From contig CAWGDD010000009.1 in assembly GCA_963821285.1 (NCBI GenBank), positions 2,431 through 66,430 of the forward strand: a stretch of 64,000 nucleotides of DNA. Direction: 5' to 3'. Origin of the DNA: an uncultured Acidobacteriota bacterium. Its GTDB lineage: Bacteria; Acidobacteriota; Vicinamibacteria; Vicinamibacterales; CAVVIG01. This document shows positions 3,876-64,000 of the stretch, in pieces. A program made the translations under genes and the position numbers. Within the stretch, counting starts at the first letter, position 1. Each line of letters starts with the position of its first letter. A model generated the notes under the pieces. It was not told the DNA's origin. It did no database searches and saw nothing but the letters and a program-made list of their open reading frames with translations.

Positions 3876-5075
3876 ATGAATCTCGGCAACGGCCTCGGCC
3901 ATCTGACGTACTCGACCCTCGTGCATCCCGCTGACAACTGGGATCAGCTGTGGTCGAGCGTGCAGACATATCTGCCGAAGGTGAAGGCGCGCATCTCGCC
4001 AGACCAGCCGTTCGGCGTGTGTCTGCGTCTCGCGGCCCCGACCGCGGAAGTCCTCGCCGCCAATGCTGACGAGCGCAAGAAGCTGAAATGGTTTCTGGCC
4101 GACAACGACATGTACGTCTACACGGCCAACGCCTTCCCGTACGGCGCGTTCAAAGGGACCGTCGTCAAGGAGCAGGTGTACGAGCCCGATTGGCGGACCG
4201 AAGAGCGCACCGCCTACACGATCAACGTCGCTGACATCCTCGCCGATCTCTGCGTCGACGGGATTTCGCCCTCGATCCAGACCGCCCCGCTCGGCTTCAA
4301 GCCGAACGTCACCGGCCCGGACGTCGTGGACAGCTACACGGAGCATGTCCTCCGCGTGGCCGCGCACCTGGTCGGGATCGAAGCCCGTACCGGACATCTG
4401 ATCACGCTCGGCCTCGAGCCGGAACCGCGCTGCTTCCTCGAGACCACGGACGAGACGGTCGCGTACTTCACGAACCATCTCTACACCGGCAAGTCCGCCG
4501 CGCGCCTCGCCAAACTCGCGGGCATCCCGATGGACACGGCCATCGCCGCGCTCCGCCGCCACCTGGGCGTCGTCTTCGACATCGGCCACCAGTCGGTCGG
4601 TTTCGAAGACATCCCGGTGTCGCTGCAGAAGCTCGTCGACGCCGGCATCCCGATCGTCAAGCTCCAGGAAGCCGCGGCGATGTATATCGGCGAGGTGACG
4701 GACGAAAAGGTCGAGGCCCTCAAGCGCTTCGCCAAGACCGTGTATCTGTCGCAAACCGTCGAGTGCCGGGGCGGCGCGGAGCTCGGGCACTACCTGAACC
4801 TCGAAGACGCGTTCGCCGGCTGGGAGACAGACAAGACCAAGCGCGAGTGGCGCACGCACTTCCACGTGCCGGTCTTCCTGACCGACCTTGGGCCGTTCAA
4901 GTCGACGCAGTTTGCGCTCGAGCAGGCGCTCGCCATGCACAAGAAAACCCCCCTCAGCCGTCAGCTCGAGATCGAAACCTACACGTGGGACGTCCTCCCC
5001 GACCACCTCAAGACCGGCGACATCGTCGAGTACGTCTGCCGCGAGCTGGAGTGGGTGAAGGGACAACTGACGTAG
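3876..5075 (+). CDS. Xylose-isomerase-like TIM-barrel protein, EboE-like
   Basis: 399 aa. N-terminus LGHLTYSTLVHPADNW...FGVCLRLAAPTAEVL resembles my recollection of the EboE (metabolite traffic protein) family. No other ebo genes are nearby. Confidence 0.55.
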   Translation: MNLGNGLGHLTYSTLVHPADNWDQLWSSVQTYLPKVKARISPDQPFGVCLRLAAPTAEVLAANADERKKLKWFLADNDMYVYTANAFPYGAFKGTVVKEQVYEPDWRTEERTAYTINVADILADLCVDGISPSIQTAPLGFKPNVTGPDVVDSYTEHVLRVAAHLVGIEARTGHLITLGLEPEPRCFLETTDETVAYFTNHLYTGKSAARLAKLAGIPMDTAIAALRRHLGVVFDIGHQSVGFEDIPVSLQKLVDAGIPIVKLQEAAAMYIGEVTDEKVEALKRFAKTVYLSQTVECRGGAELGHYLNLEDAFAGWETDKTKREWRTHFHVPVFLTDLGPFKSTQFALEQALAMHKKTPLSRQLEIETYTWDVLPDHLKTGDIVEYVCRELEWVKGQLT

Positions 5076-5113
5076 TCAGCAGTCAGCAGTCAGCAGTCGG
5101 CAGTTGGCAGTCG
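5072..5113 (+). repeat. Heptamer tandem array, about 6 x GCAGTCR (reverse complement of the 2777 array unit)
   Basis: Read directly. It overlaps the stop codon of the 3876-5075 CDS. Confidence 0.95.
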
Positions 5114-6372: not shown

Positions 6373-7299
6373 ATGCACTACGCCCTCTGCAGCAGAGATA
6401 TCAAGGTCGTCCCGGCCTATTCCGGGAATAGCCGGCAGTTCGCCCGCTGTTCGCTGGTCGACCTGTCGGTCGGCTCCGTGCATATGGGCCTGGGGCTGTG
6501 CGAGCTGAGGGCCGGGGGCTACCTCGACGTTCACGTCCATTCCTTCGAGGAAAGCTTCTACGTGCTCGAGGGTTCGCCGACGCTCATCATCGACGCGCGT
6601 GCCTATCAGCTGGGTCCTGGGGCCTGCGGTCTGGTGCCCCTCGGCACGCCGCATGCCTGGGTTGCCTCGGCTCACGGTACGGCGCGCTGGATCGACATGC
6701 TGGCGCCGCAGCCGCGCGCCGGGAACGCGCCCGCCGACACGTTCTTCCTCGGGCCTGTCGCCACCTACGAGCGGCACGATTTCGACATCCGCGATCCGCG
6801 GTCGCGGCACCTGTTCCTTGTCACGGACGGTGACATCGAGCTGGACCGTCTCAAGGCCGGCGCCTCCGTGGACGCACCCACCGTGTCTGCCAGCATGAAC
6901 ACCGCACTGCTGGCCTACAGCGGCATCGCGCTCAAGATGATGGTCGATCAGCGCCTGGGCGCCGAGCTGTCGACGATGTTCATGGTGGAGTACCAGCCGG
7001 GGGGCATCGCGCACCCGCACGACCACCCGCTGGAGGAGTCGTACTTCATTCTGGAAGGTGAGATCGAAGCCGTCGCGGACGACCGTCAATACCTGCTTCG
7101 CGCGGGGGACGTATTCTGGACGGGCGTCGGCTGCATTCACGGCTTCCGCAATACGAGCCGCAAGCCCGTGCGCTGGCTCGAGACGCAGTCTCCACAGCTC
7201 CCGTCCCGCTACGGGTACCGGTTCAATCGGGACTGGCAGTACCTGGCGGACAAACTCGCCACACCCAAGGCAGAAGAGCTGAACACCGCCGCTCGCTGA
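6373..7299 (+). CDS. Bicupin (two cupin_2-like domains) protein
   Basis: Two cupin cores: HVHSFEESFYVLEG...LVPLGTPHAW and HPHDHPLEESYFILEGE...GCIHGFRN. Start is uncertain (an internal M lies near 6486). Confidence 0.7.
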   Translation: MHYALCSRDIKVVPAYSGNSRQFARCSLVDLSVGSVHMGLGLCELRAGGYLDVHVHSFEESFYVLEGSPTLIIDARAYQLGPGACGLVPLGTPHAWVASAHGTARWIDMLAPQPRAGNAPADTFFLGPVATYERHDFDIRDPRSRHLFLVTDGDIELDRLKAGASVDAPTVSASMNTALLAYSGIALKMMVDQRLGAELSTMFMVEYQPGGIAHPHDHPLEESYFILEGEIEAVADDRQYLLRAGDVFWTGVGCIHGFRNTSRKPVRWLETQSPQLPSRYGYRFNRDWQYLADKLATPKAEELNTAAR

Positions 7300-9804: not shown

Positions 9805-9846
9805 ACTTCTGACTTCTAACTTCTAACTTCTAACTTCCAAGTTCTG
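9805..9846 (+). repeat. Heptamer tandem array, 6 x ACTTCTA
   Basis: Read directly. It is the complement of the AGTTAGA arrays at 21173 and 61612. Confidence 0.95.
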
Positions 9847-9851
9847 CCAGC

Positions 9852-12800
9852 CTAGAAGGACCACTCCCCGTTCAGACGGAAGACGCGCGGGTTCATGTAG
9901 GTCGTCGGCTGCAGCCAGCCCGTCGTCGTCGGGGAGTACGTGTAGTTGTAGGCCAGCGTCACGCTGTTGTTCATCACGTTGTAGATGTCCACGCCGGCCG
10001 TCACGCGCTGACGGCCGAAGCGAAGGACCTTCTTGAACGACAGGTCGAGCTGACGGACGCGATCGCCGTATACCTGCCCCGGGGCAATCAGGTTGACCGT
10101 GATCGGCCCCGTCAGCGTCAACGGACGACCGATCTGCGCGGCGGCAGCTGCCTGGTCCGCCGCCGTGAGCGTGTAGTTGGCGGCGAACGAGCCGAGGAGC
10201 TGATCGGTCCCGTTGTTGACCTCGGGCTTGTCCTGGTACACGCCGCTGATAATCACATCGGCGCGCGGGATGATGTAGCTGGCCAGGCCGCGAAACGCGG
10301 TCTGGAACGGCGATGAGACGTTGCAGTATGGGTTGAGGATGAACGCCGTCGCCTCCGGAACCTGGGCGCGGACGTCGCACCAGTTGTTGGTCACCTTGCC
10401 GGTGCTCGTGCCGCCCGAGAAGGTGAAGCTCTTGAGCGAGCGCACATTGAACGTCACGTCCACGCCGTTGAACACGCGCGTGTCGTCGCCGACGTCGCTG
10501 GTGGACCTGAACAGCTGGTTCGGTACCCTGCTGAACGCCGCGGGCGTCAGGTTGTAGAACGGGCCCGCTTTGTAGCCGCCGCCACCAGGCAGACGCGGAT
10601 CGAGCGGCGCCGTCACGTAATACGCGCTGACGTCGCTCGGTGACACTGCGAGGTTGTCGGTCACGGTGCCGCCGCTCGTGAACTGGGTGAACGTGCGGCG
10701 GTAGTAGCCGACCTCCACGGACGCTCGGGCGACGAGTTGCTGCTGCACCGACACGCCGTACGACCAGTCGGACGGACGGACGCCGTAGCCGGAGAGCAGG
10801 CCCGGATCGAAATTCGTGCCCACGGTGTTCGTCTTGCCGAAGTCGAGGTTGTCGATCTGGCCGCAATTGTCGATGCTCCCGGTCGTCGCCGGGCCCTGTG
10901 CCAGCGGACTCTGGAGGTTGCAGTCCGGAACGAAGTTCCGGTTGTTATCCGTCCACGTGCGGCCCGTCGACGGGGCGAAAATGCCGCCAAACGTCGTGTT
11001 GCCGTTCGGGATCCGCAGTGCCGGGTTCGAGCCGTACGCCAGATTGCTGACGCTGGCACCCTGCAGGTACTTGCCGGCGTTCGCCTTCAGCGCCGTCTTG
11101 CCGTTGCCGAACAGATCGTAGGTGGCGCCGACGCGCGGGGTGATGTCGTTGTAGCCGGTCACGCCGTCGGCGCGGGCGAAGCTGGCGCCGGGGAAGAAGC
11201 GGCTCGAGGGCTCGGTCACGGCCGGGAACCAGCTCCACGGATGGTCGTACCGGATTGCGCCCTGCAGCGTCAGCCGCTTGAGCGTCCACTGGTCTTGTGC
11301 GTAGAACGAAGCGTCCGCCGCGCGCGCGTTCACGTTGTAGCCGTTGATGTACTCCGTGATCGAGTTCGGCGTGCCGCCAATGAACGTGTACTGCACGCTC
11401 TGGCTGTTGACGTACATCCCCCGGTCGTCCTTCCACCAGTAACCCTGGTACCCGAACTTCATGCTGTGCGAACCGGTCACGTAGGAGGCCGACCCCTGCC
11501 AGTTCACGGCGTTGGTGAAATTCTGATACCAGCTCTGCGACCGGTACGTCATGTTGCCCGTCACCGCGGGCGTCGTTGCCGTGGCCGGCACGAACACCTG
11601 TCCGATGTTGAACACGCGCGCGAGGTCGTGGGTGGGGTTGGGATCGCGTTCCTTGCCGGCCCACTGGTAGTAGCTGGTGCCGAACCCGGCCTCGAGGAGC
11701 AGCTTGTTGGTCATCGGCGACGTCCAGCGCACCTGCTGGACGCGCTGCGGGTTGAAATCGCCGAGGCCGTCCGCTTCGGGCGACGTGGTCGGAGACGGCG
11801 AGCCGCTGAACGAGGTCGCGCCCGTGCACTTGCGGCAGATGGGCTGCTCATCCCACACGAACGAGAACTTGTTGCGCGGGCTCGCCTGCCAGGTGATACG
11901 CGGCGTGTAGTTTTCCCAGGTGCGGTCGGAATAGGCGGGCTGGTTGTAGTCGCCCACCCAGGTCCACGCATCCGCCTTGCCCGCGTTCTGGTTGAAGAAC
12001 ATGTTCAGCGTGTTCTGCCGCGAACCCTGCTGCCGGACGCTCATGTAGTACCAGAGCGTGTCCTTGACGATAGGCCCGCCGACCGCGGCGTTGAAATCGT
12101 ACACGTGGTACACAGGATTCGGCTGCGTGACACCGCGTGACTGGAGATCAGGACCGAAGTTGCTCGACTGCATGCCCTTCCCGAATCCGGAGGCGAACAC
12201 GAGGCCCGACATCGTGTTGCCGCCCGACTTCGGGATGACGTTGACGGTGAGGCCGGCCGTCTCCAGTTCGCCGAGGCCGCCGGACGTGATCATCGACACT
12301 TCGGCCGCGTTGCCGATGTCCGCGACGTAGTTCGACGGCTGGTTGCCGCCGGGCGGGTTACCGATGTTCAGGCCATCGACCGTCAGCCGCGATTCGACGC
12401 CGCGGCCGCCGTGGATCGGGAAGATCGCGAAGACCGGACCGGAGTTGACGTTGTTGTTGTTGGGCAGCACTCCGGGAACGGCGGTCAGCAGGTAGCTGTA
12501 GCTGCGGACGCTCGGAAGGTTGCGCATGGTCTCGTTGTCGAGCGTGACTTCGCGCCTGGTGCTCTGCACGTCGACCACCGGCGTCTCACCGGTGACGGTG
12601 ACCGTCTCCGCGACGCCGCCGACTTTCAGGTCCGCGTCGATCTTGATGACGCCGGTACCTGAGAGCACCACTTCATCGCGCTTCGTGGTGGAGAACCCGG
12701 CGAGCGTGAACGTCACGGTGTATGTGCCCGGTTGCAGACTTTCGATGCGGTACTGTCCTGTGGCATCGCTGGTGGCCGTCCGGGACTTTTCAATCAGGAC

Positions 12801-12947
12801 AGGACTCGACGCTTCGACGGTCACACCGGGCAGCACGGCGCCGGAGGCGTCTTTGACGGTGCCTGCAAGGGTCGCCTGGGCCCACGCGGCCGACGGAGCG
12901 AGGCCGACACACGCCAGCAACGCCACGAGTCTTGCGATTCGCGCCAT
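9852..12947 (-). CDS. TonB-dependent receptor with N-terminal carboxypeptidase-regulatory-like domain
   Basis: 1031 aa. Signal peptide, then GTVKDASGAVLPGVTVEASSP...TGQYRIESLQPGTYTVTFTLAGF. The beta-barrel ends ...RLNGEWSF. Confidence 0.9.
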   Translation of the reverse strand: MARIARLVALLACVGLAPSAAWAQATLAGTVKDASGAVLPGVTVEASSPVLIEKSRTATSDATGQYRIESLQPGTYTVTFTLAGFSTTKRDEVVLSGTGVIKIDADLKVGGVAETVTVTGETPVVDVQSTRREVTLDNETMRNLPSVRSYSYLLTAVPGVLPNNNNVNSGPVFAIFPIHGGRGVESRLTVDGLNIGNPPGGNQPSNYVADIGNAAEVSMITSGGLGELETAGLTVNVIPKSGGNTMSGLVFASGFGKGMQSSNFGPDLQSRGVTQPNPVYHVYDFNAAVGGPIVKDTLWYYMSVRQQGSRQNTLNMFFNQNAGKADAWTWVGDYNQPAYSDRTWENYTPRITWQASPRNKFSFVWDEQPICRKCTGATSFSGSPSPTTSPEADGLGDFNPQRVQQVRWTSPMTNKLLLEAGFGTSYYQWAGKERDPNPTHDLARVFNIGQVFVPATATTPAVTGNMTYRSQSWYQNFTNAVNWQGSASYVTGSHSMKFGYQGYWWKDDRGMYVNSQSVQYTFIGGTPNSITEYINGYNVNARAADASFYAQDQWTLKRLTLQGAIRYDHPWSWFPAVTEPSSRFFPGASFARADGVTGYNDITPRVGATYDLFGNGKTALKANAGKYLQGASVSNLAYGSNPALRIPNGNTTFGGIFAPSTGRTWTDNNRNFVPDCNLQSPLAQGPATTGSIDNCGQIDNLDFGKTNTVGTNFDPGLLSGYGVRPSDWSYGVSVQQQLVARASVEVGYYRRTFTQFTSGGTVTDNLAVSPSDVSAYYVTAPLDPRLPGGGGYKAGPFYNLTPAAFSRVPNQLFRSTSDVGDDTRVFNGVDVTFNVRSLKSFTFSGGTSTGKVTNNWCDVRAQVPEATAFILNPYCNVSSPFQTAFRGLASYIIPRADVIISGVYQDKPEVNNGTDQLLGSFAANYTLTAADQAAAAAQIGRPLTLTGPITVNLIAPGQVYGDRVRQLDLSFKKVLRFGRQRVTAGVDIYNVMNNSVTLAYNYTYSPTTTGWLQPTTYMNPRVFRLNGEWSF

Positions 12948-13298
12948 ATCTATTCCCTTCCCTCTCTGGTTTTGCTTGAATTGATTACCACTGCTGATCT
13001 ACCTCAGACGGGTTAAGTGCAGTCCTAATCTACAAGACGTCAGCTCGAAATTCTGTAAGAAAAGGCTGCGTTTGAGGCGATCCAGGCCGTCGGATCCCAT
13101 TTCTTGGATCCCAGCTTGTGCATGGCCACTATACGCGGCCCGGCGTGCATTGCCCCGAAGCTGAGCAATCTTTTGGATCAGCGGCGGCATTTTTCCGGGC
13201 CGGCGGCGAATGCCTCTTGACGCCTACCACATCTGGGGCATATGTTCAGCCGCGCTACACGGCTGGATTGGTGTCTCGCGTCTTGGTGGAGGTCCGCA

Positions 13299-16200
13299 AT
13301 GCGTGGTCTGCGATTCCTGTTCGTCCTCGGGCTCCTCCTGCTGCTTCCCGCGGTCTCGCGGGCACAGTCGATCGCCGGTGTCGCGAAGGACACATCCGGC
13401 GCCGTGCTACCGGGCGTGACGGTTGAAGCCGCCAGCCCGGCGCTGATCGAAAAGGTCCGTTCGGTAACGACTGATACCAGTGGTCAGTACAAGATCGTCG
13501 ATCTGCGGCCCGGCACCTACACGGTCACCTTCACCTTGACCGGCTTCAGCGTCGTCAAGCGCGAGGGCATCGAGCTTGGCGGTTCCGGCACCGTCACGGT
13601 CAACGGAGACCTGAAGGTCGGCACGCTGCAAGAGACGATCACGGTGACGGGCGAGACGCCGATCGTGGACGTGCAGAACGCCGCGCGCCAGCAGGTGCTC
13701 GACGGCAATCTCGTTGCGAACACGCCGGCCGCGAAGAGCTGGAACGGCATCATGCTGCTCGTGCCCGGCGTGACGGGCGACCCGGGCACCGTGCAGCTCA
13801 CACCCGGGATGGTGCTGTTCGGCATCCACGGCGGGCCGGCCACGGAAGGCCGTCTCCAGGTGGACGGCATGAACGTCGGCGCGTCGCGCGGCGGCGGCGG
13901 CGTGTCGGGGTACTCCGTCGACACGGCGAACGTGCAGGAAGTGACGTTCCGCACGTCGGGCGGCCTGGGCGAGGCGGAAACCGGCGGGCCGTACATGAAC
14001 ATCGTGCCGAAGACAGGCGGCAACACGTTCAGGGGAACGGGCTCGTTCCAGTTCTCGAACTCCTCGCTGCAGAGCGACAACTACGACGACTTTCTGCGAA
14101 GCAAGTTGAACAAACCGAGTACGCTCCTCAGCCTGTATGACGTAGACGGCGCGCTCGGCGGGCCGATCAAGAAGGACAAGCTGTGGTTCTTCTACCTCGG
14201 CCGCACGTACGGCAACGGCACGTCGGTCACCGGCATGTTCGCCAACAAGAATGCGGGCAACCCGAACTCCTGGAGCTACACGCCCGATAACACGCTGCAG
14301 GCGCGCAACGACGGCTCGACGATTACGAATGGCGTGCGGCTGACGTGGCAAATCACCCAGAAGGGCAAGCTCAATCTGTTCTGGGACTCGCAACAGGGGT
14401 GCAACGGCTCGGCGTGGATCGGCACCACGGCCCAGGCCTGCCGGCAGAATCCCGACGGCTGGATTGAAGGCGGCACGTCGACCGTCGCGCCGGAAGGCCA
14501 GACGTATGGCAACACGGCGCCCCAGCGCATCCAGCAGGCCACCTACACGAACACGCTCAACAGCCGGATGCTGTTCGAGTTCGGGTACAGCGGCTACAAC
14601 AGCCGCTGGGGCGGACCTCAGGGCCCTGGCAACCCGACGCAGGACTTCATCCAGGTTCGCGAACAGGGTGGCTCCATTCCGGGGCTCTGCTATCGCTCGA
14701 TCAGCACGTTGTGCGGCACCGGTTTCCTGACGTCCACGGGGTGGATCTCGGCGAACACCTGGCACGCCAATCTGTCGTACGTGACCGGCTCGCACAACAT
14801 CAAGTTCGGATACAACGGTCTGTACGACTACGACAACCAGGATTCGAACTACGCCAACTCGCAGGCGATGGTCTACCAGTTCAACAACGGCACGCCGAAC
14901 CAGTTCTGGGAGCTCTCGGGGATCTTCAAGAGCCAGTGGCGCACGCGGTATGACGCGTTCTTCATCCAGGATTCGTGGACGCGCGACCGGCTGACGCTGC
15001 AGGCCGCCGTGCGCTACGAGCACGCCTGGAGCTACTACCCGGAGTCCTTCATCGGGGGGACGCGCTTCATCCCCTACTCGACGATTCCGGCAGCGGACGG
15101 CGCGAACTTCAACGACATCCTGCCGCGCGTCGGTGTCGCGTACGACCTCTTCGGCACCGGCAAGACGTCGGTGAAGGCCAACTGGGGGAAGTATGTCCAG
15201 CCGGCGCAGAACGCGGGCATCTATACCGGCGCGGCGCCGACGTCGACGATTGTGACGGCGGCTACGCGCAGCTGGACCGACGCGAACAAGAATTTCGTCG
15301 TGGACTGCAACCTGACCACGCCGGGCGCGTCGGACGCAACGGGCACCGGCGGCGACCGCTGCGGCGGCCTGAGCAACACCAACTTCGGCACGCTGACCCC
15401 GGGCTTCACGTACAGCAACCAGCTGATGACCGACCTGCGGCCGTGGGACTACCAGTTCGGCGTCGCCGTCCAGCAGCAGCTCACGTCACGCATTTCCGCC
15501 GAGGTGCAGTGGAACAAGCGGTGGTTCGACGGCTACTACGTGAGCCGCAACACCGCGATCAGCCCGTCTGACTGGCAGACCTTCAACGTGACGGCGCCGG
15601 TCGACTCCCGCCTGCCGGGTGGCGGCGGCTACACCGTGAGCGGCCTGCACGATATCGCCCCGACCCAGTTCGGGAAGGCGAACTATCAGATCCAGGCGGC
15701 CGGCAACTACGGCCTCGACTCGTCGTTCCAGCAATGGAGCGGCGTGGACGTGACGGTGGCGATGCGCTCGGCCAAGGGCCTCTCGTTCCAGGGCGGCACC
15801 AGCACGGGTGAGTACAACATGGACATCTGCAGCGCCTCCAATGCCGTGCCCGACGCGCTCCTCGCATCGCAGGCATTGGCCATCGGGGTGAGTGTCCCTG
15901 GTTTCAGCTCGTTCAATGGCGTCCTGCCGTTGACGCAGGCGGGCATGGCGCCTGGCCAGTACTGCAAGATATCCTCGGGCTTCCTCACGCAGTTCAGAGG
16001 GCTCGGATCGTATGCGGTGCCAAAGGTGGACGTCGAGGTCTCGGCGACCTACCAGAGCAAGCCGGGTGCGCTGCTGGCCGCCAACTACAACATGCCAGCG
16101 GCGCAGGTCGCACAGTACCTGGGTCGTCTGCCGTCAGGCGGGGTCGCGAATGTGTCGATGAATCTCGTCACGCCCGGCACGCTTTACGGTGACCGGATCA

Positions 16201-16403
16201 ACGAGCTCGATCTGCGGTTTACGAAGGTGCTCAAGTACGGCCGCACGCGGACGAAGATCAGCCTGGACATGTACAACGCGCTCAATTCGGCGCCGGTGCT
16301 GACCTACAACCAGACCTACAGCCCGACCACGACCACGTGGCTGACGCCGACGGCGGTGCTGGCGGCGAGGGTCATGAAGATCGGCGCGTCGATCGACTTT
16401 TAG
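13299..16403 (+). CDS. TonB-dependent receptor with N-terminal carboxypeptidase-regulatory-like domain
   Basis: Paralog of 9852-12947. MRGLRFLFVLGLLLLLPAVSRAQ signal peptide. GVAKDTSGAVLPGVTVEAASP...GQYKIVDLRPGTYTVTFTLTGF. Ends ...KIGASIDF. Confidence 0.9.
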   Translation: MRGLRFLFVLGLLLLLPAVSRAQSIAGVAKDTSGAVLPGVTVEAASPALIEKVRSVTTDTSGQYKIVDLRPGTYTVTFTLTGFSVVKREGIELGGSGTVTVNGDLKVGTLQETITVTGETPIVDVQNAARQQVLDGNLVANTPAAKSWNGIMLLVPGVTGDPGTVQLTPGMVLFGIHGGPATEGRLQVDGMNVGASRGGGGVSGYSVDTANVQEVTFRTSGGLGEAETGGPYMNIVPKTGGNTFRGTGSFQFSNSSLQSDNYDDFLRSKLNKPSTLLSLYDVDGALGGPIKKDKLWFFYLGRTYGNGTSVTGMFANKNAGNPNSWSYTPDNTLQARNDGSTITNGVRLTWQITQKGKLNLFWDSQQGCNGSAWIGTTAQACRQNPDGWIEGGTSTVAPEGQTYGNTAPQRIQQATYTNTLNSRMLFEFGYSGYNSRWGGPQGPGNPTQDFIQVREQGGSIPGLCYRSISTLCGTGFLTSTGWISANTWHANLSYVTGSHNIKFGYNGLYDYDNQDSNYANSQAMVYQFNNGTPNQFWELSGIFKSQWRTRYDAFFIQDSWTRDRLTLQAAVRYEHAWSYYPESFIGGTRFIPYSTIPAADGANFNDILPRVGVAYDLFGTGKTSVKANWGKYVQPAQNAGIYTGAAPTSTIVTAATRSWTDANKNFVVDCNLTTPGASDATGTGGDRCGGLSNTNFGTLTPGFTYSNQLMTDLRPWDYQFGVAVQQQLTSRISAEVQWNKRWFDGYYVSRNTAISPSDWQTFNVTAPVDSRLPGGGGYTVSGLHDIAPTQFGKANYQIQAAGNYGLDSSFQQWSGVDVTVAMRSAKGLSFQGGTSTGEYNMDICSASNAVPDALLASQALAIGVSVPGFSSFNGVLPLTQAGMAPGQYCKISSGFLTQFRGLGSYAVPKVDVEVSATYQSKPGALLAANYNMPAAQVAQYLGRLPSGGVANVSMNLVTPGTLYGDRINELDLRFTKVLKYGRTRTKISLDMYNALNSAPVLTYNQTYSPTTTTWLTPTAVLAARVMKIGASIDF

Positions 16404-16408
16404 ATAGA

Positions 16409-16492
16409 GCAAAGGGCAGAGGGCAAAAGGCAAAGGGGAAGAGTTCCCTTTGCCCTTCCCTTTGCCCTCTGCCCTTTGCCTTCTGCCCTTCT
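16409..16492. repeat. Inverted pair of heptamer arrays (AGGGCAR x4 / CTTTGCC-type x5) forming a long imperfect hairpin
   Basis: Left arm 16409-16443 and right arm 16446-16492 are largely complementary. It fills the gap between convergent genes. Confidence 0.9.
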
Positions 16493-20006: not shown

Positions 20007-20037
20007 CTTATACAATATGACCGGCGGGGCACTCATG

Positions 20038-20127
20038 CGGGCGGGTCGGGCCTGACGGGCGGGCCGGGCAGGGCTGGCGGGTCAGGGGTCGGGCGGGTCG
20101 GGCGAGGCAGGCGGGTCGGGCAGGCTT
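20038..20127 (+). repeat. 9-mer tandem array, about 10 x GGGCGGGTC/GGGCAGGGC-like
   Basis: Read directly. It lies downstream of tRNA-Leu. Confidence 0.85.
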
Positions 20128-20584: not shown

Positions 20585-21172
20585 GTGACATTTGAGGTCG
20601 GAGACAAGGTCATTTACCCGAACCATGGTCTCGGGATCGTCGAACGCATCGAAGAGAAGACCATTCTCGGCACTACCTGCGGTTTCTATCACCTTCGTAT
20701 CGTCGCCAACGAAACCATCGTGCTCGTTCCCATCGCCAACGTCGACGGCGTCGGCCTCCGCCGCGCTATCAGCGATATGGAAGTCGAACGCCTGTTCGGC
20801 CTGCTCGGCGATGGCAAGATCGACAACCATCAGAACTGGAAGGGGCGCTTCAAGGACAACTCCGACAAGATGCGCAGCGGCTCGATCTACGACGTGGCCG
20901 ATGTGCTCAAGAGCCTGACGTTCCTGGCCAAATCCAAGAGCCTGTCGTTCCGCGAAAAGCGCATGCTCGACCGCGCCAAGTTCCTCGTGGTCTCCGAAGT
21001 CTCCGAAGTGATGCGCGAAACGGCGCCCGCCATCGAAGCGCAGGTCGACCGCGCCCTCGAGCGCTGCTTTTCGACCAAGGCGCGGACCATGGCCCGCGCG
21101 AAGGTCGTGAAGGTGGCCCCGCGCGTCGCGGCCCCGGCCGCGGCTCCCCGGCGCGCCGCACGCGCTAGCTGA
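20585..21172 (+). CDS. carD: CarD-family (CdnL) RNA-polymerase-binding transcriptional regulator
   Basis: FEVGDKVIYPNHGLGIVERIEEK...YHLRI...VLVP, followed by a helical C-terminal domain. GTG start follows GGGGAACC. Confidence 0.9.
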   Translation: MTFEVGDKVIYPNHGLGIVERIEEKTILGTTCGFYHLRIVANETIVLVPIANVDGVGLRRAISDMEVERLFGLLGDGKIDNHQNWKGRFKDNSDKMRSGSIYDVADVLKSLTFLAKSKSLSFREKRMLDRAKFLVVSEVSEVMRETAPAIEAQVDRALERCFSTKARTMARAKVVKVAPRVAAPAAAPRRAARAS

Positions 21173-21207
21173 ACTTAGAAGTTAGAAGTTAGAAGTTAGA
21201 AGTTAGA
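21173..21207 (+). repeat. Heptamer tandem array, 5 x AGTTAGA
   Basis: Starts at the nt after the carD stop codon. Confidence 0.95.
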
Positions 21208-21209
21208 AC

Positions 21210-21248
21210 GCCCGCTGTGGCACCAACCGCAGCGGGCGTTTTTCATTT
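21210..21248 (+). terminator. Intrinsic terminator after carD
   Basis: 10-bp stem CCCGCTGTGG / CCGCAGCGGG (one G-U pair), loop CACCAA, then CGTTTTTCATTTT. Confidence 0.8.
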
Positions 21249-21255
21249 TGTAGCA

Positions 21256-21296
21256 ACCTGCCGACTGCCGACTGCGGACTGCCGACTGCCACTGCT
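21256..21296 (+). repeat. Heptamer tandem array, about 6 x GACTGCC
   Basis: Read directly, between the carD terminator and the plsC-like start. Confidence 0.9.
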
Positions 21297-24164: not shown

Positions 24165-24206
24165 GGTTCAGGGTTCAGGGTTCAGGGTTCAAGGTTCAGG
24201 GTTCAC
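24165..24206 (+). repeat. Heptamer tandem array, 6 x GGTTCAG
   Basis: Read directly, between convergent genes. It is the complement of the array at 42224. Confidence 0.95.
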
Positions 24207-28119: not shown

Positions 28120-28630
<511 letters not shown>

Positions 28631-28635
28631 GAACG

Positions 28636-29490
28636 ATGAAGCCGCTGTGTCTCGCGCTGGGTCTATTTGCGGTTCTTGTATTCCCCGGCCTGCCAAGCCC
28701 GGCCCGCCCGCCCGGCCTGCCCGTTCCGGCCGTCTCCGCCCAAGTCCCGGCCGTGCCTCCATCGTCATCCCGCGCGCCGGTGTGGGGCTATCAGATCATC
28801 CGAGCGTATCCCCACGACGCCGAGGCGTTCACGCAGGGTCTCGAATACGTCGACGGCTTCTTCTACGAAGGTACCGGCCTGAACGGCCGATCGTCCATCC
28901 GCAAGGTGAAGCTCGAGACGGGCGATGTGGTGCAGCGGCGCGCGGTCGGTGCGGAGCACTTCGGCGAGGGCATCACCGTCTGGAACGACACGCTGGTCGA
29001 GCTCACCTGGCAGTCGCAGGTGGCGCTCGTCTACGATCGGCGGACGTTTCAGCCGCTCCGCACCTTCTCGTACTCCGGCGAAGGATGGGGGCTGACGCAC
29101 GACGCGGCGAACCTGATCATGAGCGACGGCACGGCCGCGCTGAGGTTCCTCGACCCGGCCACGTTTCGCGAGCGCCGCCGCGTGACGGTGACCGATGCCG
29201 GCGTGCCCGTGACGGCGCTGAACGAGCTGGAGTTGGTGAAGGGCGAGGTGTGGGCCAACGTGTGGACCACGGACTTCATCGCCCGCGTGGACCCTGTGAC
29301 GGGGCGCGTGGCCGGCTGGATCGATTTGCGAGGCCTGCTGCCCGCCCGCGAGCGCGCCGGCGACGCCGTGCTGAACGGGATCGCGTACGACGCCGCCAAC
29401 GACCGTCTCTTCGTGACCGGCAAACTCTGGCCGCGCCTGTTCGAGATCAAGGTCGTCAGTCGACAGTCAGCAGTCGGCAGTCGGCAGTAA
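28636..29490 (+). CDS. Glutaminyl-peptide cyclotransferase (bacterial/plant-type glutamine cyclotransferase)
   Basis: YQIIRAYPHDAEAFTQGLEYVDGFFYEGTGLNGRSSIRKVKLETG, NELE...GEVWANVW, NGIAYD. The C-terminal SRQSAVGSRQ comes from a heptamer array. Confidence 0.85.
   Translation: MKPLCLALGLFAVLVFPGLPSPARPPGLPVPAVSAQVPAVPPSSSRAPVWGYQIIRAYPHDAEAFTQGLEYVDGFFYEGTGLNGRSSIRKVKLETGDVVQRRAVGAEHFGEGITVWNDTLVELTWQSQVALVYDRRTFQPLRTFSYSGEGWGLTHDAANLIMSDGTAALRFLDPATFRERRRVTVTDAGVPVTALNELELVKGEVWANVWTTDFIARVDPVTGRVAGWIDLRGLLPARERAGDAVLNGIAYDAANDRLFVTGKLWPRLFEIKVVSRQSAVGSRQ
28685..28729 (+). repeat. 9-mer tandem array, 5 x CCGGCCTGC/CCCGCCCGC (complement orientation of 28581 array), inside the 5' coding region of the cyclotransferase gene
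   Basis: Read directly. It encodes PGLPSPARPPGLPVP just after the signal-peptide hydrophobic core. Confidence 0.85.
29457..29490 (+). repeat. Heptamer tandem array, about 5 x CAGTCGG, containing the stop codon of the cyclotransferase gene
   Basis: Read directly. Confidence 0.9.
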
Positions 29491-29502: not shown

Positions 29503-29523
29503 AACCTCTAACCTCTAACCTCT
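29503..29523 (+). repeat. Heptamer tandem array, 3 x AACCTCT
   Basis: Read directly. It abuts the lepB stop codon at 29525-29527. Confidence 0.85.
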
Positions 29524-29524
29524 A

Positions 29525-41323: not shown

Positions 41324-41467
41324 TAGTCAGCAGTCAGCAGTCGGCAGTCGGCAGTCGGCAGTCGGCAGTCGGCAGTCGGCAGTCGGCAGTCGGCAGTCGG
41401 CAGTCGGCAGTCGGCAGTCAGCAGTCGGCAGTGGCAGTCGGCAGTCAGCAGTCGCAGTCAGCAGTCG
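41324..41467 (+). repeat. Heptamer tandem array, about 20 x GCAGTCG (a few 6-nt variants)
   Basis: Read directly. This is the longest array in the window. It starts about 20 nt upstream of the lon ATG. Confidence 0.95.
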
Positions 41468-42223: not shown

Positions 42224-42279
42224 AGAACCTTGAACCTTGAACCCTGAACCCTGAACCCGGAACCTTGAACCCGGAACCT
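42224..42279 (+). repeat. Heptamer tandem array, 8 x TGAACCY/GGAACCT
   Basis: Read directly. It fills the divergent gap between the start at 42220 (minus) and the ATG at 42298 (plus). Confidence 0.95.
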
Positions 42280-42297: not shown

Positions 42298-43575
42298 ATG
42301 CATCACTCGGACCAGCCACGCGTCGTGATCACCGGCATCGGCGTCGTCTCGCCGTTTGGCGTGGGGCGCGAGCGCTTCTGGGATCACGTGCGCCGCGGCT
42401 GCAGCGGCACCCGCACGATCACCGAGTTCGACGCGTCGACGTTCGGGTGCCAGGTCGCGGCGCCTGCGAGCGGCGTCACGATCGACGATGTGCCGGCGTT
42501 CGAGGGAGAGGACGTCTGGGACCCGGACTACCGGGCGGACCCCAAGCGGTATTCGCGGGCGGCGCTCATCGGCGTCATCGCCGCGCGCGAAGCCTGGAGC
42601 GACGCCGGCCTGCGCATCGGCGAACCGGGCGCGGGCGTCATCGTCGGCAGCGGCGGCGGGGGTATCGATGTCGGCGAGCGGCAGTACGCAGACTTCTTCG
42701 GCGCGCGTGAACGGAAGGTGACGCCGTATGCGATCCCCGTGTCGATCGTCGGCATGGTGTCGAGCGAGATTTCGATCTCGCTGCGTCTCCGCGGCGTGAG
42801 CCACGTGCTGTCGTGCGGATGCACCAGCTCGACGGACGCCATCGGATACGCGGCGGCGCAGATCCGCGCCGGCGAGGCCGACGTCCTGTTGTCGGGCGGC
42901 ACCGACGCGTGCGTGACGCCGGGGATGATCTTCGGCTTCTCGCGGATGAAGGTCGTGTCCACGGCGTACAACGACGCGCCCGGCAGCGCCTCGCGGCCGT
43001 TCGATCGCGGGCGGGACGGGTTCGTGCTGGGCGAGGGCGCGTGGATGGTGGTGCTCGAGCGCGAGGACCGCGCGCGGGCGCGGGGCGCGCGTGTCTACGC
43101 GTCGATCGACGGCTACGGATCGACGTGCGACGCGTACCACCGCGTCCAGATGGCGCCGGACGGACGCGAGATCGTGCGGGCGATCGGCCTGGCGCTCGAG
43201 CGGTCGGGGCGTTCGCGCGACGAGATCGGCTACGTGAGCTATCACGGGACATCGACGGTGCTCAACGACGCCGTCGAGGCGCGGTGCGTGCGCGAGGTGT
43301 TCGGCGGCCATGCCGAGCGGCTCGCGGGCTCCTCGGTAAAATCGATGATCGGGCACCCGCAGGGTGCGAGCGGATCGGCCGGCGTCGTGACGGCGGCCCT
43401 CGCGCTGGCGCGGGGCTATTTCCCGCCCACGATCAACCAGCACCACCCCGATCCCGCCTGCGATCTCGACTTCGTCCCGAACACCGGCCGCGAGGCGCAC
43501 GCCGAGGCCGCGCTGTGCAACTGCCTCGGCTTCGGATCGAAAAACAGCGCGCTCGTCATCGGAGCCGCGCGGTGA
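42298..43575 (+). CDS. Beta-ketoacyl-ACP synthase family protein (FabF/KAS II-type condensing enzyme)
   Basis: VVITGIGVVSPFG, active-site Cys in SCGCTSS, His in SYHGTST and IGHPQGASG, C-terminus GFGSKNSALVIG. Confidence 0.9.
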   Translation: MHHSDQPRVVITGIGVVSPFGVGRERFWDHVRRGCSGTRTITEFDASTFGCQVAAPASGVTIDDVPAFEGEDVWDPDYRADPKRYSRAALIGVIAAREAWSDAGLRIGEPGAGVIVGSGGGGIDVGERQYADFFGARERKVTPYAIPVSIVGMVSSEISISLRLRGVSHVLSCGCTSSTDAIGYAAAQIRAGEADVLLSGGTDACVTPGMIFGFSRMKVVSTAYNDAPGSASRPFDRGRDGFVLGEGAWMVVLEREDRARARGARVYASIDGYGSTCDAYHRVQMAPDGREIVRAIGLALERSGRSRDEIGYVSYHGTSTVLNDAVEARCVREVFGGHAERLAGSSVKSMIGHPQGASGSAGVVTAALALARGYFPPTINQHHPDPACDLDFVPNTGREAHAEAALCNCLGFGSKNSALVIGAAR

Positions 43576-43583
43576 ACGGCGAA

Positions 43584-43690
43584 TTTAGTCATCTGGTCAT
43601 CTCGTCATCTGGTCTTCGTTTTGAAATTGCCCAGATTTCAAAATTGATCAGCAATGACCAGATGACCAGAATGACCGAGATGACCAGATG
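43584..43690. repeat. Composite palindromic element, copy A: 8-mer array (GTCATCTG x3), AT-rich palindromic core (TTTTGAAATT...AGATTTCAAAATT), inverted 8-mer array (CAGATGAC-type x4)
   Basis: Homologous to 63879-63984. The right end contains the ATG (43688) of the downstream gene. Confidence 0.9.
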
Positions 43691-45409: not shown

Positions 45410-46872
45410 ATGCCTTCGCCGACCGCCCGCACACCTCTGCCTTCCTCCGAGCCGCGGCGCTGGGTTCGCGCAATCGACGCGCTCTGCCTCGCGCTGGTGG
45501 TGCTGAGCGCCCTCGTCGCGATGTCGGGCGGTTTCCGCGTGCGCCTCGGCCCGCTGCGCGTGGCCGTCACGTCGCCGTACTCGACGCTGCTGTGGGCGTT
45601 CGTCGATCGCGATCGTCCGGCACGTCCTGGCACCGGCGGCGCCGATCTACCGCGACCTGCCGGCGCGGCTGGCCGCGTGGTGGCATCAGCCCGGCGTGCA
45701 CACCGCCGCGATCGTGACGGCGGGGACGCGCCCGGCGATCCTGTTTGTCGGCTACATGGCCGTGCTCGTGTTCGGCTACCCGCCGGGGCCGGCGCCGCCG
45801 GTGCAGATCAACAACGAGCTGGTGAACCTGCAGGCGCGGTGGGACGCCAACTGGTATCTCGGCATCGTGACCGAGGGCTACCACTTCGTGCCGGAACCAG
45901 CCGGGCCTTCAGCAGAGCATCGCCTTCTTCCCGGCCTACCCGCTGCTCGTGCGCGGCGTCGGCCGCATTCTGGGCGGACGGCTGACGAGCTACATCGGCG
46001 CGGGTATGCTCGTCTCGTTCGCGGCGTTTTTCGGGGCGCTCATCTACCTCTACGCGCTGGCGCGCGACACGCTCGAAGAAGACCAGGCGCGCTTCGCGGT
46101 CTGGGCGATGGCGACGTACCCGTTCGCGCTGTTCTTCGGCGCGATCTACGTCGAACCGCTGCTGCTGCTCGGGATGACCGCGACGTTCTACCACTTCACG
46201 CACGGACGGTTCGCGCGCGCCGCGGCCTGGGGTGTGCTGGTTGGTCTGACGAAGACGAACGGGTTTCTGCTCTCGATCCCGCTCGCGATGCTCGCGATCC
46301 AGGTCGGACGCGCGGGGCAGGCCGGGCAGGTCGGGCAGGTCGGGCAGGCCGGGCAGGGCGGGCAGGGCAAGAACGTCGTCACGGCGCTGGCCGCGGCGGC
46401 GATGCCTGGCCTGGGCATGCTCATCTACTCCGCTTACGTCTGGCAGCTGACCGGGGATCCGCTGGGGTGGCTCAGGGCGCACGGCGCGTGGGGCCGGGAG
46501 TATCAGGGGCTCGTGACGCTCGTGGGCGACCGGCTGAACATCATCGCGAACGCCGGCATCGAGGGCTACGTCGCGTCGCTTCCGTACGACCTCATCAACG
46601 CGCTCGGTGCGATCTTCGTGCTGGCCGCGGTCTGGCCGGTGGCCCGCAAGCTCGGTCTGGCCTACGCGGTGTTCATCCTCGTCTTCATGCTGCCGCCGCT
46701 GGCGGCCGGCGGCCTCATCTCGGCCGGGCGCTTCTCGTCCGTGTTGTTCCCCGCGTTCCTCTGGCTGGCCGGTCTGGTGCCGCCGAAACATCGCCCGGCA
46801 TGGCTCGCTTCATTCGCGGCCTTTCAGGCGCTGAACGCGGCCATGTTCTACACCTGGCGCCCGCTGTACTAG
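45410..46872 (+). pseudogene. PIG-V-like/GT-C-type membrane mannosyltransferase, two frameshifts (about 45600-45606 and 45895-45905)
   Basis: Segments MPSPTART...YSTLLWAF (frame 2), IAIVRHVLAPAAPIYRDLP...WDANWYLGIVTEGYHFVPEP (frame 3), and QQSIAFFPAYPLLVRG...to the end (frame 1). Confidence 0.6.
46312..46365 (+). repeat. 9-mer tandem array, 6 x G(G/C/T)CGGGCAG, in frame inside the glycosyltransferase gene
   Basis: Encodes AGQAGQVGQVGQAGQGGQ between two predicted TM segments. Confidence 0.9.
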
Positions 46873-54179: not shown

Positions 54180-54214
54180 AATCAGCAATTAGCAATCAGC
54201 AATCAGCAATTGAA
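54180..54214 (+). repeat. Heptamer tandem array, 5 x AATCAGC/AATTAGC
   Basis: Read directly. It fills the gap between the stop at 54178 and the ATG at 54216. Confidence 0.95.
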
Positions 54215-61597: not shown

Positions 61598-61611
61598 TGG
61601 GATAGCTTACA

Positions 61612-61696
61612 ACTTAGAAGTTAGAACTTAGAAAGTTAGAACCTAGAAGTCCTGGTTCCTAGTTCTTACTTCTTACTTCTCAGTTCTAACTTCTAA
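61612..61696. repeat. Inverted pair of heptamer arrays (ACTTAGA/AGTTAGA x5 ; TTCTTAC/TTCTAAC x6) forming a hairpin
   Basis: Read directly. The right arm overlaps the stop codon region of the 61693-62928 gene. Confidence 0.9.
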
Positions 61697-62999: not shown

Positions 63000-63953
63000 A
63001 TGGACATCGCCGCCCTGAAGACCTTCCTGGCCGTCGCCCAGGAGCGAAGTTTCTCGCGCGCCGCGGCCAAGGTTCACCGCACGCAGCCCGCGGTGAGCCA
63101 GGCGGTGCGGCGGCTCGAAGAGGATCTCGGTGAGCAGTTGTTCGATCGCTCCTCGAAGACGGGCACCCTCACCGATGCCGGGAAGGTGCTCCAGAACTAC
63201 GGGCAGCGTCTCGTGCGGCTTGCCGAGGAGGCGGAGTCGGCGATGCGTGAACTCCGCGACCTGCGCCGCGGCCGCGTGCTGATCGGCGCCAACGAAGCCG
63301 CCGTCCACACGCTGCTGCCACTCATCGGGCGGTTCCGGCGGGGTTTCCCCGATATCGCGATCGACGTCCGCCGTGTCCCGGCCCGGCAAATCGCGGTCGA
63401 AGTCCAGCAGGGGAGCCTCGACTTCGGCGCCCTGACATTTCACCCCACGGAAGAAGGCCTCCTCGAGGTCCCGGTCGGCAGCGACGAGCTCGTGCTGCTC
63501 GTCTCACCCTCGCACGAGCTGGCCGGGCGCCGTCAGGTCACCATGGCGGAGCTGGCGGGGCATCCCGTGGTGGCCCACAACGATCCGTCGCCCGCGCGGG
63601 AACGCGTCCTTCGCCTCTTCGAGGAGCACCACATCACGCTCAACATGGTGATCGCGTTGCCGAGCCTCGACGGTATCAAGCGCGCGGTCGAACTCAACCT
63701 CGGTGTGGCGCTGCTGCCCAGACGCTGCGCGATCACCGAGATCGCGAGCAAGCGGCTCGTGGCGGTGCAGGTGACGGGTGTGTCGCGCAAACGCCAGGTC
63801 ACGCTGGTGTGTCGCAGGGCGCACCGGTCGCATGCGTCGGACGCGTTCCTGAAAGTGGCCCAGGAGCACTCGCACAACCATTTAGTCATCTGGTCATTTG
63901 GTCATCTGGTCATCGTTTTGGAATTCTCAGATTTCACAATTTCCAAACGATGA
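63000..63953 (+). CDS. LysR-family transcriptional regulator
   Basis: MDIAALKTFLAVAQERSFSRAAAKVHRTQPAVSQAVRRLEEDLGEQLFDR. The last about 25 aa (HNHLVIWSFGHLVIVLEFSDFTISKR) are encoded by the composite repeat element. Confidence 0.9.
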   Translation: MDIAALKTFLAVAQERSFSRAAAKVHRTQPAVSQAVRRLEEDLGEQLFDRSSKTGTLTDAGKVLQNYGQRLVRLAEEAESAMRELRDLRRGRVLIGANEAAVHTLLPLIGRFRRGFPDIAIDVRRVPARQIAVEVQQGSLDFGALTFHPTEEGLLEVPVGSDELVLLVSPSHELAGRRQVTMAELAGHPVVAHNDPSPARERVLRLFEEHHITLNMVIALPSLDGIKRAVELNLGVALLPRRCAITEIASKRLVAVQVTGVSRKRQVTLVCRRAHRSHASDAFLKVAQEHSHNHLVIWSFGHLVIVLEFSDFTISKR

Positions 63954-63984
63954 CCAGATGACCAGATGACTAAATGACCAGATT
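63879..63984. repeat. Composite palindromic element, copy B (8-mer arrays flanking the core TTTTGGAATTCTCAGATTTCACAATTTCCAAA)
   Basis: Same architecture and largely the same sequence as 43584-43690. Confidence 0.9.
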
Positions 63985-64000
63985 CATCGTTCGCGAGCGC

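Follow-up and report, generated by a model that had tools for sequence, protein, structure and literature searches.

The locus between the beta-ketoacyl synthase (KAS) gene and the flavoprotein gene raises the question of how a palindrome built of short tandem units came to fill the space between the stop codon of one gene and the start codon of the next, and why a second copy is found where a LysR-type regulator gene ends, in the same stretch of DNA. An earlier note had described a two-copy composite palindromic element in the window, by which we mean the whole 64-kb stretch of DNA analysed here. Both copies lie where that note had put them, and the layout of tandem units, a core and inverted units was confirmed for each.

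Anatomy and predicted folding of the two copies

The features of the two copies and of the genes that they touch are as follows.

43573-43575, plus strand: TGA stop codon of the KAS gene (PF00109/PF02801), 5 nt before the left terminus of copy A
43581-43690, either strand: copy A, the whole palindromic element, which fills the KAS-flavoprotein spacer; predicted hairpin of 45 pairs, -52 to -54 kcal/mol, z = -8.9
43581-43619, plus strand: left arm of copy A, consisting of the terminus GAATTTA (43581-43587) and then four units (43588-43619) with a period of 8
43588-43619, plus strand: left-arm units of copy A, in order GTCATCTG, GTCATCTC, GTCATCTG, GTCTTCGT
43620-43652, either strand: AT-rich core of copy A, 33 nt, TTTGAAATTGCCCAGATTTCAAAATTGATCAGC, which holds a small stem of its own, TTTTGAAAT/ATTTCAAAA
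43653-43690, plus strand: right arm of copy A, inverted units of the ATGACCAG type with CAGATG at the end, which overlaps the start codon of the flavoprotein gene
43688-43690, plus strand: ATG of the FAD-binding oxidoreductase (flavoprotein) gene (PF01494), the ancestral start, overlapped by the last unit and paired inside the predicted stem
63879-63953, plus strand: element-encoded LysR tail HLVIWSFGHLVIVLEFSDFTISKR, 24 codons and a TGA (63951-63953)
63880-63986, either strand: copy B, the complete palindromic element, located where the LysR gene ends; predicted hairpin of 41 pairs, -59.3 kcal/mol, z = -10.6
63880-63916, plus strand: left arm of copy B, ATTTA (63880-63884) and then GTCATCTG, GTCATTTG, GTCATCTG, GTCATCGT (63885-63916)
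63917-63948, either strand: core of copy B, 32 nt, TTTGGAATTCTCAGATTTCACAATTTCCAAAC
63949-63986, plus strand: right arm of copy B, inverted units ending in the canonical terminus CCAGATTCA, with TCA as its last letters

The terminal inverted repeats (TIRs) of the two copies have arms of 37-46 nt that are 84-85% complementary, the 46-nt arms of copy B reaching 85%. Aligned over 118 columns, 11 of which are gap columns, copies A and B are 80.5% identical. Their G+C contents are 42.5% and 38.4%, respectively, in a window of 67.3% G+C. When the window was searched for the two-unit 16-mer with up to three mismatches, 12 matches were obtained against 0.35 expected, and 11 of the 12 lay inside copies A and B; no further copy of the GTCATCTG unit family was found in the 64-kb window. 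As RNA, copies A and B have predicted minimum free energies of -53.9 and -59.3 kcal/mol, compared with -27.5 and -24.4 kcal/mol for shuffled sequences, and the opposite strands fold equally well. The predicted stems agree with the hairpin of about 40 bp that had been proposed from the sequence. A search of the window against Rfam 15 returned one tRNA only, with nothing at the element locus except sub-threshold microRNA-hairpin lookalikes.

A dispersed family in Vicinamibacteria

The element was sought in other genomes by an exact scan with the 21-nt pattern GTCATYTSGTCATYTSGTCAT, one genome being taken per species. The pattern occurred at no fewer than 110 loci (at least this number in the genome scan), while only a handful would be expected by chance, as estimated from its information content. 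About 40 of the matches listed came from Acidobacteriota/Vicinamibacteria MAGs, and about 30 of these were the same composite, in at least 10 MAGs, each with at least 5-8 copies in the genome scan. The elements are 90-115 bp in size, non-coding and AT-rich, and among the matches listed they consist of 2-6 units, a core of 6-70 nt and then the inverted units. Their termini read TGAATYTG...CARATTCA, the outermost octamer being a special variant of the unit, and the exact terminus 13-mer TGAATYTGGTCAT was present 20 times in 16 loci among the matches listed. Inside the 8-nt units GTCAT is almost invariant and the adjacent positions vary. The family is thus one of inverted arms of 3-6 tandem 8-nt units GGTCATCT with a conserved outer terminus and a subfamily-specific core rich in CAATTG-like motifs.

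The cores of the family are related to one another and follow the theme CGTTG.TCAATTG...CAATTGA.CAACG. The core of the copy A type is common to an orthologous element in another metagenomic locus (L115) and to a non-orthologous one (L028), which lies at an unrelated locus in another genome and whose core is 87% identical to that of L115. Copies A and B are themselves at unrelated loci, yet have arms and core in common. Because unrelated sites share this non-repetitive sequence, whole elements must have been copied rather than produced by independent slippage. In high-G+C loci the GT-rich arm always comes first (27 vs 0), a constant order that may reflect mere common descent. A 5' arm that is invariably G-rich was also considered and rejected, since GTCATCTG arms contain about as much G as C.

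The closest protein relatives of the window are found in soil metagenomes and in MAGs named Vicinamibacterales. Copy B gave no match to plasmids or phages by BLAST, and a scan of viral contigs yielded eight 8-mer arrays, all unrelated to the element family. Two of the viral contigs (L196 and L201) hold long 8-mer arrays in which the unit shifts stepwise from AAATGGCA through AAATGGCG and AAATGACG to AAATAACG. In rumen Prevotella/Bacteroidales MAGs we observed palindromes of about 200 nt (L003, L005, L008, L014, L020, L030, L064, L083, L091, and L093), whose outer arms are three GGTCATTT units, followed inward by GTCAAAATCG motifs and a TA-rich central palindrome, CACTATA...TATAGTG; these have the architecture of the Vicinamibacterales element and a nearly identical unit in a distant phylum. 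A 38-nt tandem duplication at about 6440-6490 of another locus (L110) spans an element terminus and its flank (CCAGATGACCAAATTCAGAGTTCTCGTTTC, twice).

Copy A and the start of the flavoprotein gene

A metagenome scan with the flavoprotein provided 80 orthologous loci at which the KAS-flavoprotein junction could be compared. The junction is empty in 23 relatives, with 0-25 nt between the genes and often a TGATG overlap, and it carries a palindromic array of GTCATCTG or another unit in 27 relatives. The flavoprotein N-terminus, M-L/D-D-V-L-I-V-G-A-G, is conserved with or without an upstream element, and the nearest in-frame stop upstream of the ATG in the window is at 43655. Since relatives with an empty junction start at the same codon, the ATG at 43688 is ancestral and merely overlapped by the last unit. 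The earlier note had stated that the element donates this start codon; the last unit of the right arm does contain the ATG, but did not donate it. The ribosome-binding site, which the same note had assigned to the right arm, does belong there, as the region upstream of the ATG is wholly element sequence.

An array of GTCATCTG occupies this junction in the window and in six other loci (L004, L115-L118, and L136). The remaining filled junctions contain sister octamers (GGTGATTT, GGGTAATC, and GGTTATCT) or the unrelated heptamers TTTGCAC, GGAATTT, CACGAAG, and GCAGATT, and a few arrays are direct or one-armed. One-armed arrays were seen in L139, L153, and L096. The sister words at the junction are GGTCAT, GGTGAT, GGTAAT, and GGTTAT; what sets these families apart is the fourth base alone, which is changed complementarily in both arms. 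The two arms have complementary bases at this position in 20 of 22 junction elements, all four Watson-Crick variants are present, and both arms of an element always bear one unit type. On the flavoprotein tree, relatives with a filled junction are mixed among those with an empty one. The main stem was predicted for 25 filled junctions, and in most of them it spans the distance from the stop codon to the start codon.

Orthologous elements could be followed in two relatives. L115 shares with copy A both the core and a CTC variant of the unit, L117 shares only the right part of the core, and the number of units differs among the orthologous elements. Where the element can be aligned between the window and L115, identity is about 89%, compared with only 61% for the third positions of codons in the neighbouring KAS gene, so that the element has been either long kept or repeatedly homogenised; conservation so far above the synonymous rate would equally suit a host function. 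The closest relative (L114, 88%) is without the copy A element and has a spacer of 56 nt, which is not demonstrably a decayed remnant of copy A, as 79 of 500 shuffles score as well.

Several junctions are filled differently. In L160 and L174, spacers of 12-14 nt before the flavoprotein ATG (AGCAATTACCCG and CTCCCAGATTACCA) resemble one right-arm unit of the GGGTAATC family and could be either the footprint of a deletion or a seed. Positions 1-200 of L153 are a direct array of the 16-mer CAGATGACCAGACAAC, repeated about 10 times and flush with the flavoprotein ATG, with no left arm visible within the contig. L007 (3950-4037) and L192 have at the same junction an unrelated, array-free hairpin, CCGCGGAACTCGC...GCGAGTTCTGCGG, whose sense RNA folds to -51 kcal/mol compared with -34 kcal/mol for the antisense RNA and includes seven G-U pairs; the array elements show no such asymmetry.

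Copy B and the end of the LysR gene

The LysR-type regulator gene extends over 63000-63953, and the Pfam LysR_substrate domain of its product ends at residue 290. According to the earlier note, copy B replaces the natural end of this gene and adds about 25 residues and the stop codon; a comparison with LysR orthologs had been proposed as a check. The tail HLVIWSFGHLVIVLEFSDFTISKR turned out to be absent from all of the 120 closest homologues, which are 86-97% identical and 289-320 aa long (nearly all 289-310) and end 3-10 residues past AFLKVAQE. In the relative L111 (94% identical) the gene ends GCC AAC ATC TAG TCATTT, where the contig breaks. L111 therefore has the same element, whose first bases supply the LysR stop, and ...N-I-stop is also the end of several further close homologues. 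In the window the sequence is AAC C ATT TAG TCA, with one extra C relative to L111 (63878/63879, in a CC run), which shifts the frame so that the ORF reads through the left arm and the core to the TGA in the right arm. Either a true frameshift or an error of sequencing could explain the extra C. The 24 added codons and the TGA within the element are as claimed, but the element would normally provide a stop at its first bases, the tail resulting from a 1-nt shift. A conserved in-frame peptide of the RPE type is ruled out by the 120 homologues and by the stop of L111 at the TAG of the element.

The 3' end of the LysR gene is also polymorphic for the element, which is present in the window and L111 and absent from L113 (93%), where 8 nt separate the gene from a convergent one, and from L112, which has an unrelated spacer of 236 nt. 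Whole units of arms and core have thus been copied to unrelated intergenic sites in many genomes and are present or absent at orthologous sites. The proposal that the element is MITE- or REP-like, copy-pasted and dispersed is supported: unrelated loci in other genomes carry many further copies that agree in their termini and have related cores, and the search for further copies and empty sites that the earlier note suggested found both.

Placement among genes and tests for a function in RNA

We examined how the elements are placed relative to their neighbours. The flanking genes occur in every orientation: some pairs converge, others are co-directional, and a few diverge. Divergent (promoter-side) spacers account for only 2 of about 22 elements, a scarcity that is not significant. 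Because the elements nearly fill their short spacers, they abut or overlap the stop and start codons of the adjacent genes. Among 13 genes that face inward, the TGA of the canonical terminus is the stop codon in four, the stop lies 7-50 nt upstream in seven, and two read into the element. With four of 13 only, the terminal TGA was rejected as a systematic stop for the neighbouring gene, and the stop positions fit insertion into very short spacers or gene ends without special targeting of stop codons.

At mirrored polymorphic sites of the GTCATCTG family, no covariation was detected (C-G 42, C-A 24, T-G 12, and T-A 12; Fisher p = 0.33), and C-A mismatches account for 24 of the 90 sites (27%). 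Nor was there a bias toward folding of the sense strand at 27 co-directional junctions, the sense strand folding better in 9 and the antisense strand in 18 (p = 0.18). Since the arms share their unit type with neither covariation nor a sense bias, it is the repeated word that is conserved and not exact pairing. This pattern is the signature of inverted ends that bear the same repeated word, like the ends of transposons, and not of selected RNA pairing.

A sigma-70 promoter and a canonical terminator were both absent from copies A and B. The stem is followed by AUUCA or AUGCUU with no U-tract, so that neither copy has the G+C-rich stem and U-tract of an intrinsic terminator. Such a terminator, with a 16-pair G+C-rich stem followed by a T-run, is present at 21205-21242 of the window between two heptamer arrays, which indicates that the organism does use ordinary terminators. 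The absence of sense bias, covariation and a canonical terminator or promoter argues against an RNA-specific function.

Search for signs of mobility

Transposase genes or other partner genes with the same termini were not found in 8-kb windows around the matches. One locus (L013, 958-2029) has left and right arms with both canonical termini 1 kb apart, the only such case among the matches listed. Its interior contains an ORF of 131 aa with a signal-peptide-like N-terminus and a gene of the PF05635 type (23S rRNA intervening-sequence protein). As it encloses no transposase, it was rejected as an autonomous element; it is either an element split by an insertion or a cargo-bearing element. No target-site duplication was seen: the flanks outside TGA...TCA are without a direct repeat, a palindromic duplication such as AT would be indistinguishable from the TIR, and no pair of filled and empty sites among the loci compared has identical flanks. 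Nearly identical copies were not seen either (A and B are only about 80% identical), and there is thus no sign of recent transposition. The contigs of L111, L116, and L118 end inside the element.

Other arrays in the window

Arrays of 7-9 nt units, several of them unrelated to one another, are present in 12 of the 33 spacers of the window. The heptamer arrays are located at 2777-2837, 5074-5112, 9805-9845, 21171-21208, 21258-21295, 24165-24205, 29452-29488, 29503-29524, 41325-41467, 42225-42278, and 54180-54210; their units include GACTGCC/AGTCGGC, GAAGTTA, GGTTCAG, AATCAGC, and AACCTCT, and they fill the spacers flush with the stop and start codons. A fixed polarity of the arrays relative to genes was rejected, because a given heptamer can stand in either orientation between co-directional genes. 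Two palindromic composites of heptamers, GCAAAGG/CCTTTGC and TTAGAAG/CTTCTAA (16409-16490 and 61607-61694), share the arm-core-arm architecture, the genes around one of them converge, and the other separates a co-directional pair of minus-strand genes. As the same palindromic architecture is built here from different 7-8 nt units, a link between the element and the tandem-array phenomenon appears plausible from these sequences.

Repeats of other kinds were also noted. G+C-rich 9-nt tandem repeats of the GGGCAGGCC type occur at 46300-46366, 20037-20125, and 28580-28624, the first of which is within an ORF and encodes GQAGQVGQVGQAGQGGQG. Long imperfect inverted repeats (10399-11325 and 14939-15808, 70-88% complementary) stem from two divergent paralogous genes of about 3.1 kb, at 9852-12947 on the minus strand and 13242-16403 on the plus strand.

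Origin of the element

Taking these results together, we consider that copies A and B probably belong to a family of non-autonomous, foldback-type, MITE/REPIN-like palindromic repeats of about 90-115 bp that spread in trans in Vicinamibacterales (Acidobacteriota). It seems unlikely that the element is instead a host cis-acting element under selection whose dispersal is secondary, for example an RNase III site, a 3'-end stabiliser, a non-canonical terminator or a device for coupling or attenuation. Such a role would account for the very stable predicted hairpins, the stem that spans stop to start at the KAS-flavoprotein junction, an identity of about 89% across a deep divergence at which neighbouring synonymous-type sites retain 61%, and the presence of arrays in about one-third of the window spacers and one-half of the orthologous junctions; the rarity of divergent spacers points the same way, although it is not significant. 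However, close relatives manage without the element, using a TGATG overlap or spacers of 0-25 nt, and unit families replace one another at the same junction. The sense RNA is not favoured, more than a quarter of the mirrored sites are C-A and do not covary, the stems lack a U-tract though a canonical terminator is present at 21205-21242, no Rfam family matches, and in the window the LysR C-terminus is damaged. We give still less credence to an origin in situ, in which slippage expanded short words and inverted duplication or template switching followed, so that the two copies would be parallel products and not mobile. The many spacers with arrays of unrelated 7-9 nt units agree with that scenario, as do the same palindromic layout in the heptamer arrays at 16409-16490 and 61607-61694 and in many at the KAS junction, the variable unit number among orthologous elements, the one-armed arrays and the single-unit spacers of L160 and L174, which could be seeds. 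Independent slippage cannot, however, yield a core and a terminal octamer TGAATYTG that are common to unrelated loci and genomes, and the invariable precedence of the GT-rich arm (27 to 0) also speaks against it.

The element could further be thought of as a binding array for a chromosomal protein, nucleoid-associated or supercoiling-related as has been proposed for REP/BIME, with the palindrome serving cruciform formation or binding. The invariant GTCAT every 8 bp between variable flanking positions, the symmetry at the DNA level and the occurrence of AT-rich islands in a genome of 67% G+C suit this idea, but with a spacing of 8 bp neighbouring sites would not share one face of the helix, no protein has emerged as a candidate, and presence/absence in close relatives and the replacement of unit families are difficult to reconcile with it; we regard it as improbable. 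An artefact of assembly or sequencing is scarcely credible: contigs of three relatives do break inside the element and the LysR read-through hangs on one extra C in a CC run, but dozens of independent assemblies, long-read MAG contigs above 1 Mb among them, contain the whole element between unique flanks, and only the one-base frameshift could by itself be an error.

Comparison with known repeats

The bacterial MITEs Correia/NEMIS, ERIC, RUP and the Rickettsia RPE overlap genes and fold in mRNA. The element resembles them in being small, non-coding and AT-rich, with dispersed copies, terminal inverted repeats, presence/absence polymorphism at orthologous sites, hairpins that would be co-transcribed, and the supply of stops or extension of ORFs. 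It differs in that no target-site duplication was seen and no parent IS was found in the 8-kb windows around the matches, in TIRs made of tandem octamers, and in sister families that differ by one complementary base pair per unit. RPE is a conserved in-frame module, whereas the LysR extension here is an accident of a frameshift. Eukaryotic Foldback (FB) transposons, which measure kilobases and have a known transposase partner, likewise have long inverted termini of short tandem subrepeats and snap back as a whole; the resemblance is architectural only, as they belong to another domain of life.

REPINs are REP doublets (Bertels & Rainey, 2011; PMC3116915), and REP sequences have been grouped into super-families (Di Nocera et al., 2013; PMC3733652). 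Like REPINs, the element is non-coding and about 100 bp long, an inverted doublet whose arms and short spacer are predicted to form a long hairpin, and it is intergenic, occurs in many copies per genome and is inherited vertically with long persistence. A REP sequence is an imperfect palindrome of 20-40 nt with a GTAG or CGTC head (PMC3733652). In contrast, the arms here are direct arrays of a non-palindromic 8-mer, and the termini read TGAATYTG with no such head. TIR families linked to tyrosine transposases (TIRYTs) were described in other Acidobacteria (Di Nocera et al., 2013; PMC3733652), but no RAYT/TIRYT partner was seen for the present element in the 8-kb windows around the matches.

The nearest precedent for the wider array phenomenon is provided by TAACTGA heptamer arrays in Beggiatoaceae, Cyanobacteria and Bacteroidetes, which included one indirect repeat among 170 sets (MacGregor, 2015; PMC4679880). 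These arrays and the cyanobacterial STRR similarly consist of short tandem units that run up to start codons without a Shine-Dalgarno sequence, are patchy across phyla and have no known mechanism of spread, and the window carries heptamer arrays as well. The TAACTGA arrays are direct with almost no inverted partners, whereas the element here has an 8-nt unit and is a palindrome of inverted arms with a shared core and termini. We found no description of this unit or family in the literature. The family is apparently undescribed, yet its kind, the selfish DNA of MITEs and REPINs, is already known, and it is not a new kind of system.

Proposed mechanism and significance

We propose that the element spreads, or once spread, by a trans-acting enzyme that would recognise the GTCAT-containing units of both arms. 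A transcribed element would fold into a hairpin of about 40 bp, which at copy A would enclose and sequester the start region of the flavoprotein gene, and the upstream stop and the downstream start would face each other at the base of the stem. A ribosome terminating on the KAS gene would melt the stem base and so could still reinitiate at the flavoprotein gene, which would explain how insertions are tolerated in a gene pair that normally overlaps. At copy B the element would normally supply the stop codon of LysR, the 1-nt shift in the window giving rise to the 24-residue tail. RNase III cleavage and protection of 3' ends are further plausible effects of the hairpin.

A wider view, which we consider doubtful but worth stating, is that of a modular superfamily in which the 8-nt word is the recognition code of a putative recombinase/transposase or RNA-binding protein. 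Sister families would then evolve in step with the protein and replace one another over time at given gene junctions. By bridging stop and start the palindrome would maintain translational coupling over about 100 nt, which would be why cells tolerate it and perhaps make use of it. Spacer-filling arrays, heptamer arrays included, would on this view be an organising feature of whole genomes in Vicinamibacteria.

Vicinamibacteria are among the most abundant soil bacteria and have barely been studied. If the share of about one-half of the junction orthologs and one-third of the window spacers holds genome-wide, arrays are a major overlooked component of these genomes. The elements matter for annotation and assembly, since they create or remove stops, extend ORFs, hide start regions and break short-read contigs. 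The family is also a natural series of TIR variants, with all four base pairs at one unit position, that may help in finding the cognate protein, and it offers a test case for translational coupling of two genes across a long hairpin.
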